NCBI RefSeq assembly: GCF_016903815.1
Contig: NZ_CP069973.1
Length of the DNA: 64,000 nt
Strand: one strand, 5' to 3'
Source: Escherichia coli
Lineage (GTDB): Bacteria > Pseudomonadota > Gammaproteobacteria > Enterobacterales > Enterobacteriaceae
Positions within the stretch are counted from its first letter, which is position 1; every line of letters begins with the position of its first letter. Of the stretch, positions 12,235 to 25,433 are shown one piece after another. The position numbers and the translations under genes were made by a program. The notes beneath the pieces were generated by a model, which was not told where the DNA came from, ran no database searches, and saw nothing but the letters and a program-made list of their open reading frames with translations.

Positions 12235-12451
12235 GAAAAATCCCCCAGAGAATTGTCTGGGGACATTTTAGAATGGTTCAAAGGGGACATTACAGCTTGG
12301 TGTTAACAATAGCCTGCTTCTCCGTGCCTTTCGGCACGTAAGAGGCTAACCTACATGTGTCTAGCATGAAATTGGCCTCAGATTAATGTTAAGCGTCTTG
12401 CAGGACGCGTAATGTTAACTGGGGCTTTTCTCTATCTGCCTTTGGTGTTCG

Positions 12452-12481
12452 TGCCCGAGGCAGATAGCCTCAAGCACCCGC
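12452..12481 (+). repeat. Direct repeat copy A flanking the kwaAB-like cassette
   Basis: TGCCCGAGGCAGATAGCCTCAAGCACCCGC; 14-nt core CCTCAAGCACCCGC identical to copy B at 14487-14500; preceded by inverted repeat CTATCTGCC/GGCAGATAG. Confidence 0.6.
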
Positions 12482-12717: not shown

Positions 12718-13746
12718 TTACGCCTTAATAGGGTTAATCACATTTCCGCTATCCGTACCATAGTATTTTTTTGTAGTCATGCCTTGTTTATAATAATCAT
12801 TTAACAGTTTGAGAAAGTTTCTTCCTTGCCTCTCATCTTCTATGACTAATTTACCATGCTCATTGGTCTTAAACTCTTCGTTCTGAAACATTTTTAGCAC
12901 ATCATTCATAGCTTGAACATCATTCTTTTCCAGAACCGTATGGTTACCTTTCTCAGCGATATGAGTGAGAATTTTTCTCAGTGATGGCTTATGAAGAATA
13001 GCTTGTTCAATAACATCTAAACCTTCAATAAGATCAAGTTCTTTAATTGTATTTAATGTTTTTTGTGCAGCTTCTGTAAACTCAACCTCCAAGCCTACAA
13101 TAGCCTCAAAACTTTTCTTATGAAATACATAAAATTGATCTTTTATATAAATACAATCGATTTTGTCATCAAAATTGACTGCGCTGCCATCAAATGATCT
13201 TAACTCTTTATCTGTTTTATCAAACAAAGCGAATACGCGCTGAGTCATATTTTGTGGTTCATTTGTTGTGACTTTCCCCCTGCTGATTTTTCGGAAAGAA
13301 TAAGTGACGTCAGCCCCCTTTTGGACTTTAATACAATAGGCCCACAAATCATTCTGAACCTCAGCAAGAGAGGTAAGTACAACTGGTTTATCATTCTTTA
13401 TATCGTTATTAATAACTTTTGAAAACGATATCGCGTTATTCATAGCATAGGCATAAATTTTATTATCAATATCATCATCAATAACAGTATGCTTTTTCAT
13501 CACAATATCATCTTTCGAAGCATGAGAAATAATCTGGTTTGATAAAGTATACTTAAAAAATTTAGCAATATCTGGAGCGATTGGAGCTTTAATGATTTTA
13601 AAATCGAATTTATCAACAACTCTTGCGGTTCTACTCATACCCGCTTTAAGATGTCTAGTAATGAAATACAACGATATTTTCGCCGCATCATCATCCTTAA
13701 GTTGCTCAGCATACTCTAATAATTCTTCAAGCTTTAACATTTTCAT
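12718..13746 (-). CDS. Soluble 342-aa protein, candidate Kiwa KwaB-like (DUF4868-like) defense component
   Basis: Second gene of an AT-rich two-gene operon, 4-nt overlap with the upstream membrane-protein gene; family assignment by architecture only. Confidence 0.55.
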   Translation of the reverse strand: MKMLKLEELLEYAEQLKDDDAAKISLYFITRHLKAGMSRTARVVDKFDFKIIKAPIAPDIAKFFKYTLSNQIISHASKDDIVMKKHTVIDDDIDNKIYAYAMNNAISFSKVINNDIKNDKPVVLTSLAEVQNDLWAYCIKVQKGADVTYSFRKISRGKVTTNEPQNMTQRVFALFDKTDKELRSFDGSAVNFDDKIDCIYIKDQFYVFHKKSFEAIVGLEVEFTEAAQKTLNTIKELDLIEGLDVIEQAILHKPSLRKILTHIAEKGNHTVLEKNDVQAMNDVLKMFQNEEFKTNEHGKLVIEDERQGRNFLKLLNDYYKQGMTTKKYYGTDSGNVINPIKA

Positions 13747-14357
13747 TCCTTATGGGATTCAGCATAAAAAAGTTTTGGGCCCACGTCCTCAACATCAAGA
13801 AGATCATCTTCCTCCAAATACTTTGATTTAGTCAAAACCATACCAGTGCGTTTTTTGTCGCTTTCTAAATCCAAATATGTAACTTGATATAAAGTATAAT
13901 TAATACTTATTGTAGGATTTATAAGTATCATGCTTGAATTAATATATATTAAAGCCGTTACCGTTAACAATATTGCTATAGGTATAACATTAGTTAAAGT
14001 GGATAGATCCTGAAATACAAACGGAATTATATATGTAAAAAGATAGCTTATTGATTCATTGTTTTTATTTTCAATATCTATAACTCTTACAGTTCTACCA
14101 CTAGTGGCGCATCGACGTTTTATATTTTTTAAAAAAATTGTTAATCCTACAATACCAAATAATGATAATACACCAATGACACTGACCGCGCCAAAGTATT
14201 TAAAGAAAATAGTTAATGATTCAACACTTATACCTTTCCAATTTAAATAGCTTCTATAAGTATACAATTGCACAAAACACATGATAAAGAATAGGGGAAG
14301 GTATGACACTATAAATAGCGAAACTCTAGCACCTAAATGTAGTTTATTTACTCTCAT
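13743..14357 (-). CDS. Four-helix integral membrane protein, candidate Kiwa KwaA-like
   Basis: 204 aa with four hydrophobic segments (about residues 12-32, 55-76, 103-115, 125-140) and an acidic C-terminal tail; -10-like TAAAAT about 30 nt upstream. Confidence 0.55.
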   Translation of the reverse strand: MRVNKLHLGARVSLFIVSYLPLFFIMCFVQLYTYRSYLNWKGISVESLTIFFKYFGAVSVIGVLSLFGIVGLTIFLKNIKRRCATSGRTVRVIDIENKNNESISYLFTYIIPFVFQDLSTLTNVIPIAILLTVTALIYINSSMILINPTISINYTLYQVTYLDLESDKKRTGMVLTKSKYLEEDDLLDVEDVGPKLFYAESHKE

Positions 14358-14565: not shown

Positions 14566-15252
14566 TCACTCCTTCTCTTCTTTATCGTAGTGGAGTTGAC
14601 CAATTTTGATAAGAGGGCGTCCCTGAGATTTGCGGTGTAGATTGGTATCGCGCAGAGAATACACACAGCCACAATATTCCTGCTGATAGAATTTTTCGCG
14701 CTTGCTGATTTCAATCATGCGGGACGAGCCGCCCTGCTTGCGCCAGTTATAATCCCAGTACACCATGCCCGGATAATGCGCGACGGCTCGCCGCCCACAG
14801 TCGTTAACCTGCTGCATATTTTTCCAGCGTGAAATGCCCAGTGAACTGCTGATCACACTGAAACCATTTTCAGCAGCGTACAGCGCTGTCCGCTCAAAAC
14901 GCATGTCAAAACACATGGTACAACGGATCCCCCTCTCGGGCTCCCATTCCATTCCTTTGGCACGTTCAAACCAGTTGTCTGTGTCGTAATCAGCATCAAT
15001 AAATGGCACGCCGTGTTGTTCAGCAAAGCGAATATTCTCATCCTTACGAATTAAATACTCTTTCTGAGGATGAATGTTCGGGTTGTAGAAAAAGATGGTA
15101 TAGTCGATTCTCGAGGCCTGAAGTGCCTCCATCACTTCACCGGAACATGGAGCACAGCAAGAGTGCAGTAGTAGTTTGTTTGCCCCGTTTGGGAGCTCCA
15201 ATTTAGGCCGTTTGAAATCAGCAATAGTCATAAATATTTTTATTGGGGTCAT
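14566..15252 (-). CDS. QueH-like (DUF208) epoxyqueuosine-reductase homolog
   Basis: N-terminal [11 protein letters not shown] motif plus further conserved Cys (CTMC, CGC); alternative start at 15231. Confidence 0.65.
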
Positions 15253-18207: not shown

Positions 18208-18363
18208 ATGGATACTATCGATCTTGGCAACAACGAATCTCTGGTGTACGGCGTGTTTCCAAACCAGGACGGCACGTTCACCGCAATGACGTATACCAAA
18301 AGCAAAACGTTTAAAACCGAAAATGGTGCCCGTCGCTGGCTGGAAAGAAACTCAGGTGAGTGA
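18208..18363 (+). CDS. ydfA: YdfA-like small protein (51 aa)
   Basis: MDTIDLGNNESLVYGVFPNQDGTFTAMTYTKSKTFKTENGARRWLERNSGE within ORF 18154..18363. Confidence 0.75.
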   Translation: MDTIDLGNNESLVYGVFPNQDGTFTAMTYTKSKTFKTENGARRWLERNSGE

Positions 18364-18364
18364 T

Positions 18365-18940
18365 ATGGATTTCGACACAATCATGGAAAAGGCTTACGAA
18401 GAATACTTCGAAGGCCTTGCCGAAGGCGAAGAAGCTCTCAGCTTCAGTGAGTTTAAACAGGCACTCAGAATAAGAATGTGCTCTCACAATGACGCGGAGC
18501 ACAAATATGAGAAGCAAAATCAGACCGCAGAAAATTTTGTTCTGGAACCCGGAGAAACGCTTTTCAAAATTCCCGTTACGTGCCCCATTTGCGGTTTTAC
18601 ATCAGAAGAACTTGACGACTCCTGTAACAATCAGGAAACAACCAAGTATGTCGAAGATGATACCGAGTGCGCACGAAGAACGATTATATCCACGAGTCCA
18701 AACTCCAGGACCAATAAATCTCACTTTGAGAGGGTGATTAATCCACTCCCCCAAACCAATAAAAAAGATGCCGGAGGACAAAAAACCCAATGGAACAACG
18801 GGATATCTGTCAAAAAAAGACGTTCCATTAAAGACAAACAACGCAGCGCCAACAACTGTAAGCGCTTTATACCAGTAATCAATTTTCATGTTCTTAAGCG
18901 GATTTATTGGTGGTTGCGACATTGCTTAATGAATCCTTAA
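18365..18940 (+). CDS. YdfB/YdfC-region protein, continuous 191-aa ORF with CPICG motif
   Basis: ATG 2 nt after the ydfA stop; start of ORF 18323..18940 trimmed to MDFDTIMEKAYEEYFEG…. Confidence 0.45.
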   Translation: MDFDTIMEKAYEEYFEGLAEGEEALSFSEFKQALRIRMCSHNDAEHKYEKQNQTAENFVLEPGETLFKIPVTCPICGFTSEELDDSCNNQETTKYVEDDTECARRTIISTSPNSRTNKSHFERVINPLPQTNKKDAGGQKTQWNNGISVKKRRSIKDKQRSANNCKRFIPVINFHVLKRIYWWLRHCLMNP

Positions 18941-19199
18941 AACTGTGGTGATTTTAAGGATACCACCTCGCCTGACGTGGTTAAAAGCAGGCACACAACA
19001 CGAAAGCGCACGGCGAAGTTCGTCTCACTGTACGGTGTCGTTAAATTTAATTCGACCGTGCGCTTCCGGTTGTGGCAACCCGCGAAATGGCGCGGCGGTA
19101 AGTATGGCGGGGTTATTCCTTCCCCGTTGAGGACACCGAGTTGTCAGGTTGACCATACGCTTAAGTGACAACCCCGCTGCAACGCCCTCTGTTATCAAT

Positions 19200-19257
19200 T
19201 TTCTGGTGACGTTTGGCGGTATCAGTTTTACTCCGTGACTGCTCTGCCGCCGTTTTT
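19200..19257 (+). ncRNA. dicF: DicF small regulatory RNA
   Basis: TTTCTGGTGACGTTTGGCGGTATCAGTTTTACTCCGTGACTGCTCTGCCGCC followed by a T-tract, matching recalled DicF. Confidence 0.85.
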
Positions 19258-19426: not shown

Positions 19427-19615
19427 ATGAAAACGTTATTACCAAACGTTAATACGTCTGAAGGTTGTTTTGAAATTGGTGTCACTATCAGTAACCCTGT
19501 ATTTACTGAAGATGCCATTAACAAGAGAAAACAAGAACGGGAGCTATTAAATAAAATATGCATTGTTTCAATGCTGGCTCGTTTACGTCTGATGCCAAAA
19601 GGATGTGCACAATGA
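19427..19615 (+). CDS. dicB: Cell-division inhibitor DicB
   Basis: 62 aa MKTLLPNVNTSEGCFEIGVTISNPVFTEDAINKRKQERELLNKICIVSMLARLRLMPKGCAQ. Confidence 0.9.
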   Translation: MKTLLPNVNTSEGCFEIGVTISNPVFTEDAINKRKQERELLNKICIVSMLARLRLMPKGCAQ

Positions 19616-19803
19616 ATTCAGCATTTGCGCTTGTTCTGACAGTTTTTCTTGTTTCCGGAGAGCCAGTTGATATTGCAGTCAGTGTTCACAGGACAATGCA
19701 GGAGTGTATGACTGCAGCAACCGAACAGAAAATTCCCGGTAACTGTTACCCGGTCGATAAAGTTATTCACCAGTATAATATCGAAATCCCGGCAGGTCTT
19801 TAA
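19612..19803 (+). CDS. ydfD: YdfD small lysis-associated protein
   Basis: 63 aa MNSAFALVLTVFLVSGEPVDIAVSVHRTMQECM…; ATGA overlap with dicB. Confidence 0.8.
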   Translation: MNSAFALVLTVFLVSGEPVDIAVSVHRTMQECMTAATEQKIPGNCYPVDKVIHQYNIEIPAGL

Positions 19804-19896
19804 AACAGTTCCGTAATAAATATCCGGTTTCATTCTTATATGCCAGCAATGGCAGGGATTTGTTCATCCTTAAATCTGTCATGAGGTTAAAACAAA

Positions 19897-22368
19897 ATGA
19901 GTAAAGTCTTTATTTGCGCCGCTATTCCTGACGAACTGGCAACAAGGGAAGAAGGCGCTGTGGCTGTAGCCACAGCCATTGAAGCTGGCGACGAACGCCG
20001 TGCTCGAGCAAAATTTCACTGGCAATTCCTGGAACATTATCCGGCTGCTCAGGACTGCGTTTATAAATTTATTGTCTGCGAGGATAAACCTGGCATACCC
20101 CGCCCTGCCCTCGATTCATGGGATGCTGAATATATGCAGGAAAACCGCTGGGATGAGGAGTCTGCTTCTTTTGTCCCGGTTGAGACTGAATCCGATCCGA
20201 TGAACGTCACTTTTGACAAGCTGGCCCCTGAAGTACAGAACGCTGTCATGGTTAAGTTCGACACATGTGAAAACATCACCGTTGATATGGTTATTAGCGC
20301 ACAGGAATTGTTGCAGGAAGACATGGCAACATTCGACGGACATATCGTTGAAGCGTTGATGAAAATGCCAGAAGTTAACGCCATGTATCCGGAGCTTAAG
20401 TTGCACGCCATTGGGTGGGTTAAGCATAAATGTATTCCTGGTGCTAAATGGCCCGAAATTCAGGCAGAGATGCGCATCTGGAAAAAACGTCGCGAAGGTG
20501 AACGCAAGGAAACCGGAAAATACACGTCTGTTGTTGATCTCGCCCGCGCCAGAGCCAATCAACAGTACACTGAAAATTCAACAGGAAAAATCAGCCCGGT
20601 CATTGCTGCCATTCATCGCGAATACAAGCAGACATGGAAAACACTGGATGACGAACTGGCCTACGCTCTCTGGCCTGGTGATGTGGATGCCGGAAACATT
20701 GACGGCAGCATCCATCGCTGGGCAAAAAATGAAGTTATCGATAACGACCGCGAAGACTGGAAGCGTATCTCGGCATCAATGCGCAAACAGCCTGATGCCC
20801 TTCGCTACGACCGCCAAACTATTTTTGGCCTTGTCCGTGAACGTCCGATCGACATTCACAAAGATCCCGTAGCACTGAACAAATATATCTGCGAATACCT
20901 GACGACAAAGGGCGTGTTTGAGAATGAAGAAACAGACCTGGGCACTGTTGATGTTCTCCAGTCATCAGAAACACAAACTGATGCAGTGGAAACTGAGGTA
21001 TCTGATATCCCAAAAAATGAAACCGCGCCGGAAGCTGAACCATCTGTAGAGCGTGAGGGGCCGTTCTATTTCCTCTTCGCAGATAAGGACGGAGAAAAAT
21101 ACGGTCGCGCAAACAAACTTTCTGGTCTGGATAAGGCACTGGCTGCTGGCGCCACTGAAATCACAAAAGAAGAATATTTTGCCCGAAAAAATGGCACATA
21201 CACGGGCTTACCGCAAAATGTAGATACCGCTGAAGATTCAGAACAACCAGAGCCGATGAAAGTTACCGCTGACGAAGTAAACAACATTATGCAGGCAGCC
21301 AATATCATCCAGCCTGACGCCGATAAGTTGCTTGCTGCATCACGTGGTGAATTTGTTGAAGGGATTAGTGACCCGAATGATCCGAAATGGGTTAAGGGGA
21401 TCCAGACCCGCGATTCTGTGAACCAGAACCAGCATGAATCGGAACGGAACTACCAAAAAGCGGAACAAAACAGCCCAAATGCGTTACAAAACGAGCCAGA
21501 AACGAAACAGCCTGAATCAGTGGCGCAACAGGAAGTGGAAAAAGTCTGCACCGCCTGCGGTCAGACCGGCGGCGGCAACTGCCCTGATTGTGGCGCGGTA
21601 ATGGGCGACGCAACATACCAGGAAACATTCGATGAAGAGTATCAGGTTGAAGTTCAGGAAGATGATCCGGAGAAAATGGAAGGCGCTGAACATCCACACA
21701 AGGAGAACACTGGCGGCAATCAGCATCACGATAGCGATAATGAAACTGGCGAGACGGCAGATCACTCAATTAAGGTGAACGGTCATCACGAAATCACATC
21801 CACCAGCAGGACGTGTGACCATCTAATGATCGACCTTGAAACCATGGGAAAAAATCCTGATGCCCCGATCATCTCAATAGGTGCAATATTTTTCGATCCG
21901 CAAACCGGAGATATGGGACCGGAATTTAGTAAGACTATCGATCTGGAAACTGCTGGCGGAGTCATTGATCGGGACACCATTAAATGGTGGCTTAAGCAAT
22001 CACGCGAAGCGCAATCTGCCATTATGACCGATGAAATCCCGTTAGATGATGCACTGTTACAATTGCGGGAATTTATCGACGAAAACTCCGGTGAATTTTT
22101 TGTTCAGGTCTGGGGAAATGGAGCCAACTTCGACAACACGATTTTGCGCCGTTCATACGAACGGCAGGGGATCCCCTGCCCGTGGCGTTACTACAACGAT
22201 CGCGATGTACGCACAATCGTTGAGCTGGGGAAAGCCATAGACTTCGATGCCAGAACGGCTATTCAATTCGAAGGTGAGCGCCATAATGCACTTGATGACG
22301 CCCGTTACCAGGCAAAATACGTTTCAGTTATCTGGCAAAAACTGATCCCGAGTCAGGCTGATTCTTAA
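19897..22368 (+). CDS. ydfE: Large prophage protein (YdfE-like), 823 aa, with C-terminal DnaQ-like DEDDh 3'-5' exonuclease domain
   Basis: Exo motifs I (MIDLETMG), II ([12 protein letters not shown]) and III ([13 protein letters not shown]) in the last about 180 aa; acidic low-complexity linker; CxxC…CxxC around residues 550-560. Confidence 0.7.
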
Positions 22369-22440: not shown

Positions 22441-22692
22441 ATGAGCGAAGTAATCATGATTGTCTCTCCCGGCAAATGGGTATCCGAAGAGCAGTTAATT
22501 GCGCTGAAAGGAATAAAAAAAGGTACGTTAAAAAAGGCCCGGGAAAAATCGTTTATGGAAGGAAGGGAATATAAGCATGTCGCTCATGACGGTATGCCAT
22601 GGGATAACAGTCCATGCTTTTACAACCTGGAAGAAATTGATCGCTGGATTGAGCGCCAGGCATCAGCAAGACCAAGACGTCATCTTACTTGA
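22441..22692 (+). CDS. Excisionase-like small DNA-binding protein
   Basis: 83-aa basic ORF directly upstream of the integrase region; family unverified. Confidence 0.45.
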   Translation: MSEVIMIVSPGKWVSEEQLIALKGIKKGTLKKAREKSFMEGREYKHVAHDGMPWDNSPCFYNLEEIDRWIERQASARPRRHLT

Positions 22693-22762
22693 CTAAAAGC
22701 CACACTAACGTAACCGGCTCATTTAAACCGTCTGGTCTGTTTCCTCCGGCTCTACAAAAATA

Positions 22763-23440
22763 ATGTCCATCATTTTTAATGGACACTATCGTATGAAACA
22801 CCGGACCTGGATCACTGAAGCTTTACGTCTTCACTTTGAAGAACATTTACCCCGGGTTGTGGCCGGGCGTCGCCTGGGTGTACCAAAATCAACAGTTTGT
22901 AGTATGTTCGTGCGCTTTCGGAGAGCTGGCCTTTCGTGGCCTTTGCCCGCAGGCATGTCGGAGCAGGAACTTGATGCCTGCCTTTACGGACAATTTTCCA
23001 CGGTACCAGTCGTACGTCCTGAAAGCACCGTTATATCCGAAGCCCCCGTGGTAAAAAAACGTCCCCGGCGGCCCAACTTCCCTTATGAGTTTAAAATCGC
23101 CTTAGTGGAGCAGTCACTGCAGCCCGGAGCCTGTGTGGCGCAGATCGCCCGGGAAAACGGAATCAACGATAACCTGCTCTTCAACTGGCGCCATCAATAC
23201 CGGAAAGGTGGCCTGCTGCCTTCCGGAAAAAATATGCCGGCACTGCTTCCCGTGACGTTAACGCCGGAGCCGGATAATAAAATCCCGGCCCCCGCACAGG
23301 AACCAGAGCAGATAAATACACCGTCCGACAGTCTGTGTTGTGAGCTGGTTCTGCCGGCCGGAACTCTCAGGCTTAAAGGTAAACTGACGCCGGCGTTATT
23401 ACAGACACTTATCCGCGAAATAAAAGGGAGCAGCCACTGA
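22763..23440 (+). CDS. tnpA: IS66-family accessory protein (orf1/TnpA, HTH)
   Basis: ORF with IS66 orf1-like segment (…FKIALVEQSLQPGACVAQIARENGINDNLLFNWRHQYRKG…); start uncertain (22763 or 22793). Confidence 0.65.
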   Translation: MSIIFNGHYRMKHRTWITEALRLHFEEHLPRVVAGRRLGVPKSTVCSMFVRFRRAGLSWPLPAGMSEQELDACLYGQFSTVPVVRPESTVISEAPVVKKRPRRPNFPYEFKIALVEQSLQPGACVAQIARENGINDNLLFNWRHQYRKGGLLPSGKNMPALLPVTLTPEPDNKIPAPAQEPEQINTPSDSLCCELVLPAGTLRLKGKLTPALLQTLIREIKGSSH

Positions 23441-23787
23441 TGATATCTCTCCCTGCAGGTTCGCGTATCTGGCTGGTTGCAGGTATCACCGATATGCGAA
23501 ATGGCTTTAACGGCCTGGCATCAAAAGTTCAGAACGTCCTGAAGGATGACCCGTTCTCCGGACACCTGTTCATCTTCCGCGGACGCCGGGGTGACCAGAT
23601 AAAAGTGTTGTGGGCTGACAGTGACGGACTGTGCCTCTTCACCAAACGCCTGGAGCGGGGCCGCTTCGTCTGGCCAGTCACCCGTGACGGCAAGGTGCAC
23701 CTTACTCCGGCTCAGTTATCCATGCTTCTTGAAGGTATCAACTGGAAGCACCCGAAACGAACGGAACGCGCTGGAATCCGCATATAA
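23440..23787 (+). CDS. tnpB: IS66-family TnpB (orf2)
   Basis: 115 aa MISLPAGSRIWLVAGITDMRNGFNGLA…; ATGA overlap with orf1. Confidence 0.85.
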   Translation: MISLPAGSRIWLVAGITDMRNGFNGLASKVQNVLKDDPFSGHLFIFRGRRGDQIKVLWADSDGLCLFTKRLERGRFVWPVTRDGKVHLTPAQLSMLLEGINWKHPKRTERAGIRI

Positions 23788-23806
23788 CCCGTTGTAAAGT
23801 GAGGAT

Positions 23807-25378
23807 ATGGACACCTCACTTGCTCATGAGAACGCCCGCCTGCGGGCACTGTTGCAGACGCAACAGGACACCATCCGCCAGATGGCTGAATACAACCGCC
23901 TGCTCTCACAGCGGGTGGCGGCTTATGCTTCCGAAATCAACCGGCTGAAGGCGCTGGTTGCGAAACTGCAACGTATGCAGTTCGGTAAAAGCTCAGAAAA
24001 ACTTCGTGCAAAAACCGAACGGCAGATACAGGAAGCACAGGAGCGAATCAGCGCACTTCAGGAAGAAATGGCGGAAACGCTGGGTGAGCAATATGACCCG
24101 GTACTGCCATCCGCCCTGCGCCAGTCTTCAGCCCGTAAACCGTTACCGGCCTCACTTCCCCGTGAAACCCGGGTTATCCGGCCGGAAGAGGAATGCTGTC
24201 CTGCCTGTGGTGGTGAACTCAGTTCTCTGGGATGTGATGTGTCAGAGCAACTGGAGCTTATCAGCAGCGCCTTTAAGGTTATCGAAACACAACGTCCGAA
24301 ACAGGCCTGTTGCCGGTGCGACCATATCGTGCAGGCACCAGTACCTTCAAAACCCATTGCACGCAGTTATGCCGGAGCGGGGCTTCTGGCCCATGTTGTC
24401 ACCGGGAAATATGCAGACCATCTGCCGTTATACCGCCAGTCAGAAATATACCGTCGTCAGGGAGTGGAGCTGAGCCGTGCCACACTGGGGCGCTGGACAG
24501 GTGCTGTTGCTGAACTGCTGGAGCCGCTGTATGACGTCCTGCGCCAGTATGTGCTGATGCCCGGTAAAGTCCATGCTGATGATATCCCCGTCCCGGTCCA
24601 GGAGCCGGGCAGCGGTAAAACCCGGACAGCCCGGCTGTGGGTCTACGTCCGTGATGACCGTAACGCCGGTTCACAGATGCCCCCGGCGGTCTGGTTCGCG
24701 TACAGTCCGGACCGGAAAGGTATCCATCCACAAAATCACCTGGCCGGTTACAGCGGTGTGCTTCAGGCCGATGCTTACGGTGGTTACCGGGCGTTATACG
24801 AATCCGGCAGAATAACGGAAGCCGCGTGTATGGCTCATGCCCGGAGAAAAATCCACGATGTGCATGCAAGAGCGCCCACCTACATCACCACGGAAGCCCT
24901 GCAGCGTATCGGTGAACTGTATGCCATCGAGGCAGAGGTCCGGGGCTGTTCAGCAGAACAGCGTCTGGCGGCAAGAAAAGCCAGAGCCGCGCCACTGATG
25001 CAGTCACTGTATGACTGGATACAGCAACAGATGAAAACACTGTCGCGTCACTCAGATACGGCAAAAGCGTTCGCATACCTGCTGAAACAGTGGGATGCAC
25101 TGAACGTGTACTGCAGTAATGGCTGGGTGGAAATCGACAACAACATCGCAGAGAACGCCTTACGGGGAGTGGCCGTAGGCCGGAAAAACTGGATGTTCGC
25201 GGGTTCCAACAGCGGTGGTGAACATGCGGCGGTGTTGTACTCGCTGATCGGCACATGCCGTCTGAACAATGTGGAGCCAGAAAAGTGGCTGCGTTACGTC
25301 ATTGAACATATCCAGGACTGGCCGGCAAACCGGGTACGCGATCTGTTGCCCTGGAAAGTTGATCTGAGCTCTCAGTAA
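23807..25378 (+). CDS. tnpC: IS66-family transposase TnpC (DDE)
   Basis: 523 aa with coiled-coil N-terminus, CxxC zinc motifs (CPACGG…CCRCDH) and DDE core. Confidence 0.9.
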
Positions 25379-25433
25379 ATATCAATACGGTTCTGACGAG
25401 TCGCTTACACACTAACTAATGAGAGAAGTTGAA

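Follow-up and report, generated by a model that had tools for sequence, protein, structure and literature searches.

The ydfE gene and its prophage locus

Within the window, that is, the whole stretch of 64,000 nucleotides that was analysed, positions 19897..22368 of the + strand form an intact open reading frame of 823 amino acids with an ATG start, as given by the ORF list, and a Shine-Dalgarno-like GAGG, read from the sequence, lies 9 nt 5' of the ATG (19884..19887, +). We identified this coding sequence as the full-length form of K-12 ydfE. PHROG 2082 matches residues 1-822 of the 823, in agreement with the preliminary description of an intact 823-aa YdfE-like protein. The full-length family match and the orthologous locus described below show that the protein belongs to YdfE. 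The identical protein is RefSeq WP_000048363.1 ("exonuclease"), and 100% identical DNA occurs in many E. coli genomes, where it is annotated 'exonuclease'. Two existing Pfam families, YdfE_N and YdfE_C, cover YdfE, and precomputed Pfam matches to PF27430 and PF27432 are found on proteins 88-94% identical to the one in the window. The gene is thus already known: it is an annotated, very common and ordinary prophage gene. Our literature search on ydfE returned twenty papers that mention the gene, none of them in its title or abstract, and no experimental study of its role; a search on Rv2179c, PF16473 and DnaQ-like exonucleases together with anti-defence likewise returned no functional study of the window YdfE.

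The early operon reads dicA, ydfA, DicF, dicB, ydfD, ydfE, which makes ydfE the last early gene before xis-int. The DicF small RNA (19201..19252, +; Rfam RF00039, 72.5 bits, E 1.1e-14) sits 650 nt 5' of ydfE in the same operon. It is followed by dicB (19427-19615, +), the second gene 5' of ydfE, and by ydfD (19612-19803, +), which lies directly 5', both taken from the PGAP annotation of the identical locus. Directly 3' of ydfE is an excisionase gene (22441..22692, +; PHROG 539 excisionase, E 1.4e-35; PGAP 'excisionase family protein'). The dicB-ydfD order upstream is the same in K-12, EDL933 and phages, and the stereotyped order dicB-ydfD-exonuclease-xis-int is also found in EDL933 and phages. 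The prophage is of the Qin/dicB lambdoid type, with ydfE as the final pL-type early gene of the dicB operon. A simple scan of the + strand, which is weak evidence, gave no sigma-70-like promoter directly 5' of ydfE. A Kiwa defence system is also encoded in this prophage. An IS66-family element now separates xis from int, and ISNCY fragments lie upstream; the prophage looks defective.

In K-12, ydfE (b1577) is an annotated pseudogene that corresponds to residues 1-256 of the window YdfE, with 255/256 residues identical, and is interrupted by IS2E at codon 256. The alignment bears out the IS-disrupted K-12 counterpart named in the preliminary description. The two genes share their chromosomal site (dicB-ydfD-ydfE-…-int, adjoining rspB; between ydfD and intQ). 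The K-12 version has neither the middle region nor the linker or exonuclease domain, whereas the window copy is complete. K-12 ydfE is, in other words, the stump of a widespread and selected prophage exonuclease.

Domain architecture and selection

YdfE is a mosaic, in which a YdfE_N head (aa 1-205), a middle shared with RecE (aa 240-500) and an acidic linker with four cysteines precede a C-terminal DEDDh domain. The N-terminal folded domain (aa 1-205; 19897..20511, +) corresponds to the newer Pfam family YdfE_N and is the portion that survives in K-12 ydfE. It is followed by a helical middle domain (aa 240-345; 20614..20931, +), recognised from the AF2 model and the RecE alignment and common to RecE and the other family members, for which AF2 pLDDT is 94-98 and dN/dS is 0.11. 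Linker 1 (aa 346-384; 20932..21048, +), predicted to be disordered (AF2 pLDDT below 50), leads to a small alpha/beta domain (aa 385-435; 21049..21201, +; AF2 pLDDT 84-96) modelled with strands at 390-394, 401-405 and 419-422 and helices at 408-416 and 424-431. Further on, BLASTP against RecE and column conservation delimit a conserved helix with an ISDPNDPKW motif (aa 475-500; 21319..21396, +), which is about 90% identical to RecE 455-480 and has an AF2 pLDDT of about 78-81; of 64 sequences, 48 keep D495 and 49 keep P496.

The four cysteines C551, C554, C562 and C565 form a CxxC-x7-CxxC element (21547..21591, +) that was read as a motif in a region of low AF2 confidence. The element recurs almost identically in RecE, and among the 17-21 family representatives possessing the segment, 15-20 retain the four residues; we regard it as a putative zinc knuckle. 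The acidic linker behind it (aa 576-640; 21622..21816, +) is about 28% D+E with a net charge of -14 and is predicted to be disordered (AF2 pLDDT 29-40). Composition, modelled disorder and cysteine positions thus agree with the preliminary description, which had placed a long acidic linker and a CxxC…CxxC element ahead of the exonuclease. No fold relative of known function was found for the front module, so that the scaffold role discussed below is one that we infer.

The C-terminal domain (aa 642-813; 21820..22335, +) belongs to the T4 DexA family of DEDDh 3'-5' exonucleases. PF16473 (Rv2179c-like 3'-5' exonuclease) matches it with an E-value of 6.6e-67 over model positions 2-177 of 177, which confirms the DnaQ-like assignment. 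All three Exo motifs are found within the last ~180 residues, as had been claimed, from D646 to D801: Exo I is MIDLETMG, with D646 and E648; Exo II is GANFDN, with D746; and Exo III is HNALDD, with H796 and D801 in the H-x4-D spacing of the 'h' subtype. The catalytic residues of DexA are D7, E9, D119, H186 and D191 (PMC12153337). Far from falling outside the DEDDh families, all five YdfE residues align with them: D646/E648 with D7/E9, D746 with D119, and H796/D801 with H186/D191. All 10 homologues compared, with identities as low as 26%, keep the pentad unchanged. The T4 DexA structure 8KEL is matched with an E-value of 2e-6 by the single sequence and of 1.5e-36 by the profile, and DexA is the only solved homologue of the domain that is detectable by sequence. 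The AF2 secondary structure fits an RNase H-like alpha/beta fold with pLDDT below 50, a low confidence that comes from the shallow alignment. The best Foldseek matches of the domain are Orn, ERI1 and 3'hExo (E ~2e-3, weak and with high rmsd); support for the fold therefore comes only from sequence and from these weak matches. Taken together, it is highly probable that the gene in the window is intact, encodes a DEDDh exonuclease and represents ydfE in full.

Of the 5426 complete E. coli genomes, 4222 carry the YdfE exonuclease domain, at 9027 places (median copy number per genome, 2). The full gene is present at a coverage of 80% or more in 3536 genomes. The RecE nuclease domain is found in 1742 of the same 5426 genomes, at 1834 places. 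On these numbers a DEDDh enzyme is not unusual in E. coli, and the earlier view that a 3'-5' enzyme here stands out was overstated. Additionally, the complete phage genome HannyBb has a 98.8% identical copy of ydfE at the same position. Purifying selection acts on the folded domains, with dN/dS of 0.09-0.15 (0.15 for the exonuclease domain against a divergent copy), while linker 1 is close to neutral at 0.68-1.15. These values bear on the possibility that ydfE is a functionless gene of a decaying prophage whose reading frame stays open by chance. Such a fate would suit a prophage with insertion sequences between xis and int and upstream, and a gene whose K-12 allele is a pseudogene. Nonetheless, the dN/dS values of the folded domains, the invariant pentad, the number of genomes with a largely complete gene, the median of two domain copies per genome and the presence of ydfE in complete phage genomes all speak against it. 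We consider this explanation very improbable, and rejected a remnant or chance reading frame on the dN/dS values and the conservation.

Candidate substrates of the exonuclease

The most likely explanation is that YdfE acts as an exonuclease on the 3' ends of DNA and is produced when the prophage is induced. The activity would be a Mg2+-dependent 3'-to-5' exonuclease, and the protein would be produced only upon derepression of the prophage. Its substrate would probably be DNA 3' ends, as with DexA, and the reaction might serve phage DNA replication and recombination or the breakdown of host DNA. Weighing the intact gene and the proposed role together, we think this explanation probably holds as a whole; taken by itself, the DNA-end-processing role is a tentative proposal. 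T4 DexA (exonuclease A; PDB 8KEL/8KEN) belongs to the same DEDDh family, with the five catalytic residues aligned. It is a stand-alone protein of 227 aa with extra loops, whereas the YdfE domain is fused behind a module of 640 residues, and identity between the two is ~26-30%.

Alternatively, the enzyme could be a 3'-5' exoribonuclease that trims RNA 3' ends, for instance in the processing or turnover of early-operon transcripts including DicF, or in the degradation of host RNAs after induction. The namesake of PF16473, Rv2179c of M. tuberculosis, is a stand-alone bacterial exoribonuclease and shares its Pfam family with the YdfE domain. Database names of YdfE-type genes include 'exonuclease' and "3'-5' exonuclease", and many read "3'-5' exoribonuclease", but such labels have been carried over from the Pfam entry. 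Orn, ERI1 and 3'hExo, which the domain weakly resembles in structure, are RNA exonucleases, and the operon also encodes a small RNA, DicF, 650 nt upstream of ydfE. On the other hand, DexA, the one solved homologue that sequence detects, is a DNA exonuclease, and no Rv2179c-labelled chain was found among the solved structures at E <= 0.01, family profile included. Moreover, the front module is common to RecE, RecT-type and possibly Rad52-like fusions, all of them DNA-recombination proteins. An RNA substrate therefore seems unlikely to us, and DNA 3' ends remain the preferred substrate.

A second alternative concerns defence. EcD (GenBank HAK9828821.1), or 'HREX', is an E. coli-encoded exonuclease from the DexA family that was reported in 2025 to digest T4 DNA and to protect E. 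coli from T4 (PMC12153337). By analogy, YdfE would be a prophage defence nuclease that digests the 5hmC DNA of superinfecting T-even phages and spares the DNA of the host. The domain belongs to the DexA family and keeps its catalytic residues, the same prophage carries the Kiwa system, and stand-alone forms of the exonuclease (~190 aa) occur in prophages at the same position, just 5' of an excisionase-like gene. Several observations argue against this analogy. The gene lies in a repressed early operon and has no promoter-like site of its own, so YdfE is probably not made in the lysogen. W152 of DexA, reported as necessary for 5hmC recognition (PMC12153337), has Tyr766 in its column in YdfE; W763 lies three residues upstream, and several relatives have Trp at the column itself. 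EcD lacks the equivalent of DexA D90 and has A78 there (PMC12153337), whereas YdfE retains the residue as D718, so that the loss seen in EcD (the dimer-only form) is absent here. Additionally, the cloning primer places the EcD start at motif I (PMC12153337), which makes EcD a stand-alone enzyme, in contrast to the 823-aa fusion, and the anti-T4 activity is reported for EcD only (PMC12153337). The EcD forward primer was absent from the loci examined, and a 20-mer of the reverse primer matched one unrelated IMG/VR contig that does not have the forward primer. Finally, the PADLOC defence-system libraries gave no match for the window YdfE. Defence by YdfE against 5hmC phages is in our opinion rather improbable, but the report of a stand-alone EcD-type defence of this kind gives interest to the fused version.

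Kinship with RecE and exchange of catalytic domains

In the Rac prophage, RecE (exodeoxyribonuclease VIII) occupies the same early-operon slot, before xis-int, as YdfE does in the window. The preliminary description had assigned ydfE to the recombination/exonuclease position next to xis-int, and this placement holds: xis adjoins the gene, recE lies in the same slot in Rac, and the two proteins have a common region. YdfE aa 262-625 and RecE 278-591 are homologous, with 39% identity overall and ~80% over aa 475-625 (BLASTP). The helical middle domain aligns to RecE from residue 278, and the ISDPNDPKW motif falls within the shared region, as does the CxxC…CxxC element. The NCBIfam RecE model NF007259 matches YdfE in part, at positions 271-602, with 277 bits, below its cut-off of 1269. 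In RecE, too, no function is known for the N-terminal ~560-600 residues (PMC11611040).

The two proteins differ at both ends. The head is YdfE_N in YdfE and Exonuc_VIII in RecE, and the catalytic C-terminus is a DEDDh 3'-5' exonuclease in the former and a PD-(D/E)XK 5'-3' nuclease in the latter. Indeed, the BLASTP alignment ends at RecE residue 591, and a query with RecE 595-866 picked up further relatives of the front module, though the representative that is 94% identical to the window YdfE was not among them. The gene neighbourhood differs as well: recT adjoins the RecE type, whereas ydfE in the window has no recT and is followed by xis. With RecT as query, tblastn gave no match in either the window or HannyBb, and no annealase partner was found in them, which weakens the case for a classical two-component recombinase. 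Unlike RecE, YdfE would then work without an adjacent annealase.

In a set of 48 long proteins related to the front module, the tail is the DEDDh domain in 8, the RecE nuclease domain in 13 and a third common tail in 21. PHROGs call the third tail 'exonuclease', while Pfam gives weak Rad52_Rad22 matches (best E 1e-2) in 6/9 members and there is no PDB sequence match; on this basis it is possibly Rad52-like. One relative joins the RecE N-terminal domain with YdfE_C and the DEDDh domain.

Food for a broader interpretation is what the front module is for. The RecE-like front part could be a targeting or assembly scaffold able to bear different end-processing enzymes. More specifically, aa ~1-500 and the Cys knuckle of YdfE and RecE might be a portable scaffold, confined to prophages of Enterobacterales, with swappable DNA-end enzymes: the 5'-3' PD-(D/E)XK nuclease of RecE, the 3'-5' DEDDh domain of YdfE and possibly a Rad52-like tail. 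The DEDDh form, the most frequent in E. coli by a wide margin and without an annealase, would then do something other than classical single-strand-annealing recombination; it might destroy phage DNA that is modified or comes from a competitor, or steer host repair pathways by trimming 3' ends. We put this forward as a somewhat doubtful possibility. RecE is used daily in recombineering and yet has a long N-terminal region with no known function. The same module with a nuclease of opposite polarity, present in ~78% of E. coli genomes, amounts to a natural domain-swap series, and comparing the versions of the module could reveal the purpose of the 'dispensable' 600-residue N-terminus of RecE. As to nomenclature, some records call such genes 'exodeoxyribonuclease VIII'; for the catalytic domain, which is of the DEDDh and not of the RecE type, this name is incorrect.

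The complete ydfE gene and its prevalence

The gene at 19897..22368 (+) consists of one open reading frame of 823 codons that begins with ATG, 9 nt downstream of a GAGG ribosome-binding site on the same strand. Judged by alignment, it is the complete form of K-12 ydfE. The MG1655 annotation lists ydfE (b1577) as a pseudogene that overlaps IS2E, lies between ydfD and intQ and adjoins rspB; its translation is identical to ours at 255/256 positions (residues 1-256) and diverges thereafter. The preliminary description, which had proposed this alignment, had thus rightly described the K-12 counterpart as an IS-disrupted pseudogene. Chromosomal site and gene order are the same in both genomes, the order here being dicC/dicA, ydfA, a ydfB fragment, the DicF RNA, dicB, ydfD, the gene itself, xis, int and rspB. 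The DicF small RNA (19201..19252, +; Rfam RF00039, 72.5 bits) is 5' of dicB and belongs to the operon that contains the exonuclease gene. The RefSeq annotation of the identical locus, with ydfB truncated and ydfC missing, places no gene on either strand of 18467..19200. A 205-aa ORF (18323-18940, +) matches PHROG 35040, a label without function, at E 7e-150, and a 106-aa ORF predicted to encode a membrane protein (18602-18922, -) matches no PHROG.

Many complete E. coli genomes contain identical DNA, and in them PGAP names the product 'exonuclease' (WP_000048363.1). PHROG 2082, also labelled 'exonuclease', matches the protein over its full length, and recent Pfam releases assign YdfE_N (PF27430) and YdfE_C (PF27432) to such proteins. 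Some portion of the gene is present in 4799/5426 complete genomes. DNA of the exonuclease domain is found in 4222 of them (at 9027 places and with a median of two copies per genome), versus 1742 (1834 places) for the nuclease domain of RecE, the Rac prophage exodeoxyribonuclease VIII of K-12. The order dicB-ydfD-exonuclease-xis-int recurs in O157:H7 EDL933, in phage vB_EcoS-813R8 and in HannyBb, a complete lambdoid phage with a 98.8% identical copy. The gene is therefore not new, since its annotation already exists, and as a very common prophage gene it is not unusual in E. coli either; the earlier remark that a 3'-5' exonuclease is unusual here does not hold. We found no test of the biochemical activity or biological role of the protein in the literature searched.

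The exonuclease domain and its possible roles

The observation and main interpretation of the preliminary description, a YdfE-like protein with a C-terminal DEDDh 3'-5' exonuclease domain, were correct, and each feature it listed is found: Exo I (MIDLETMG; D646, E648), Exo II (NFDN; D746), Exo III (HNALDD; H796, D801), a Cys knuckle of two CxxC motifs (551-554 and 562-565) and an acidic linker (576-640; Asp+Glu ~28%, net charge -14), disordered by AlphaFold2 prediction. In Pfam, residues 642-813 match PF16473, the Rv2179c-like 3'-5' exoribonuclease domain, end to end (E 6.6e-67), and the generic RNase_T family matches weakly. Such database names suggest an exoribonuclease, a role that we consider unlikely; the sole match in a sequence search of solved structures was an 'Exodeoxyribonuclease' of 227 aa (PDB 8KEL/8KEN), which is DexA of phage T4 (PMC12153337).

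D646, E648, D746, H796 and D801 are unchanged in an alignment of ten family members with identities as low as 26%, including stand-alone Vibrio, Bacillus, Pseudanabaena and Lactococcus phage proteins and the DexA of a T4-like Acinetobacter phage. A profile from this alignment matches T4 DexA at E 1.5e-36, with the H-x4-D motif also aligned. The catalytic residues of DexA are given as D7, E12, D119, H186 and D191 (PMC12153337), whereas the second is E9 by our alignment. Catalytic residues out of register with DEDDh families had been named as grounds for rejecting the assignment; all align, including with DexA, and it therefore stands. On these alignments the active site is intact, and the domain is homologous to a DNA 3'-5' exonuclease. 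The AlphaFold2 model of the domain is poor because few sequences cover it, so that the fold assignment depends on sequence together with weak Foldseek matches to oligoribonuclease, ERI1 and 3'hExo.

The gene sits in the early operon, and a promoter scan detected no site resembling a promoter for the gene itself. Derepression of the dicB operon would lead to synthesis of the protein, which would remove nucleotides at DNA 3' ends, and its RecE-like module might localise or assemble it. A prophage-encoded defence role likewise seems unlikely. EcD, a stand-alone E. coli DexA homologue, was reported in 2025 to digest T4 DNA and to protect against T4 (PMC12153337); however, our protein is a fusion, aligns Tyr766 to DexA W152 and keeps an Asp missing from EcD, and the operon position speaks against expression in lysogens.

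Architecture, selection and module exchange

AlphaFold2 predicts confident folded units at residues 1-205, 240-345 and 385-435, a helix with a conserved motif at 475-500, and disordered linkers at 346-383 and about 503-640. Comparison with the EDL933 copy gave a dN/dS of 0.09 for residues 1-205, 0.11 for 240-345 and 0.68 for the first linker; comparison with a divergent copy gave 0.15 for the exonuclease domain and 1.15 for the linker. The folded parts, including the front part without assigned function, are kept by selection, and these values disfavour a functionless remnant.

Residues 262-625 align with 278-591 of K-12 RecE (BLASTP, 39% identity overall). Identity is close to 80% from residue 475 on, Cys knuckle and conserved motif included, and the alignment ends where the RecE nuclease domain starts. 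The NCBIfam RecE model is matched at positions 271-602 only, far under its cut-off. Residues 1-640 gave only 247 matches among 1.84 billion cluster representatives. The DEDDh domain forms the C-terminal end of 8 of the 48 long relatives, and a RecE-type nuclease domain that of 13; one has a RecT-family segment. A third tail (about 250-390 residues), which PHROGs label 'exonuclease' and for which Pfam gives just a weak Rad52_Rad22 signal, is common to 21. In ~20 cluster representatives (P0126-P0269, e.g. L013:4001-6226), YdfE_N and YdfE_C are fused to a conserved ~260-residue tail (PHROG 7838, labelled 'exonuclease'; Rad52_Rad22, weakly, is the one Pfam signal). No nuclease motifs were recognised in this tail, and the 'exonuclease' label of these proteins may be wrong. 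At locus L013, a Sipho_Gp157-family gene follows the fusion gene.

RecT, the RecE nuclease domain and the third tail, used as tblastn queries, had no match in the window or in HannyBb. Since the next gene is xis, with no accompanying annealase, the gene is not part of a classical exonuclease-annealase pair. One relative combines a RecE-type head (Exonuc_VIII), YdfE_C and the DEDDh domain, in a gene between kilR and an integrase gene. The 813R8 copy is nearly identical to the present gene at residues 501-823 but extremely divergent in its N-terminal head; thus recombination exchanges modules inside the gene. As a stand-alone protein of ~180-190 aa, the exonuclease domain occurs in >700 phage records; one such protein is also encoded in an E. 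coli P22-like prophage, again just 5' of an excisionase-like gene. The modest interest of the gene is that it forms, together with RecE, a natural domain-swap series.

Other elements of the prophage

The same prophage holds a complete Kiwa anti-phage system (12718..14357, -) in a block of low GC (0.32), with KwaB at about 12718-13746 (-; PADLOC E 5e-158) and KwaA at 13743-14357 (-; E 2.5e-101). A sok antitoxin RNA of a hok/sok-type module (12308..12479, -; Rfam RF01794, 105.6 bits) adjoins the Kiwa genes, and a queH-like gene (14566..15252, -; epoxyqueuosine reductase QueH in PGAP) lies between Kiwa and the replication genes. An ISCro1-like element of the IS66 family (tnpA, tnpB, transposase; 22710..25407, +), bordered by a CACACTAAC duplication, sits exactly within the 19 bp that separate xis from int; this spacer is uninterrupted in HannyBb. 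The insertion probably uncouples int from transcription of the early operon.
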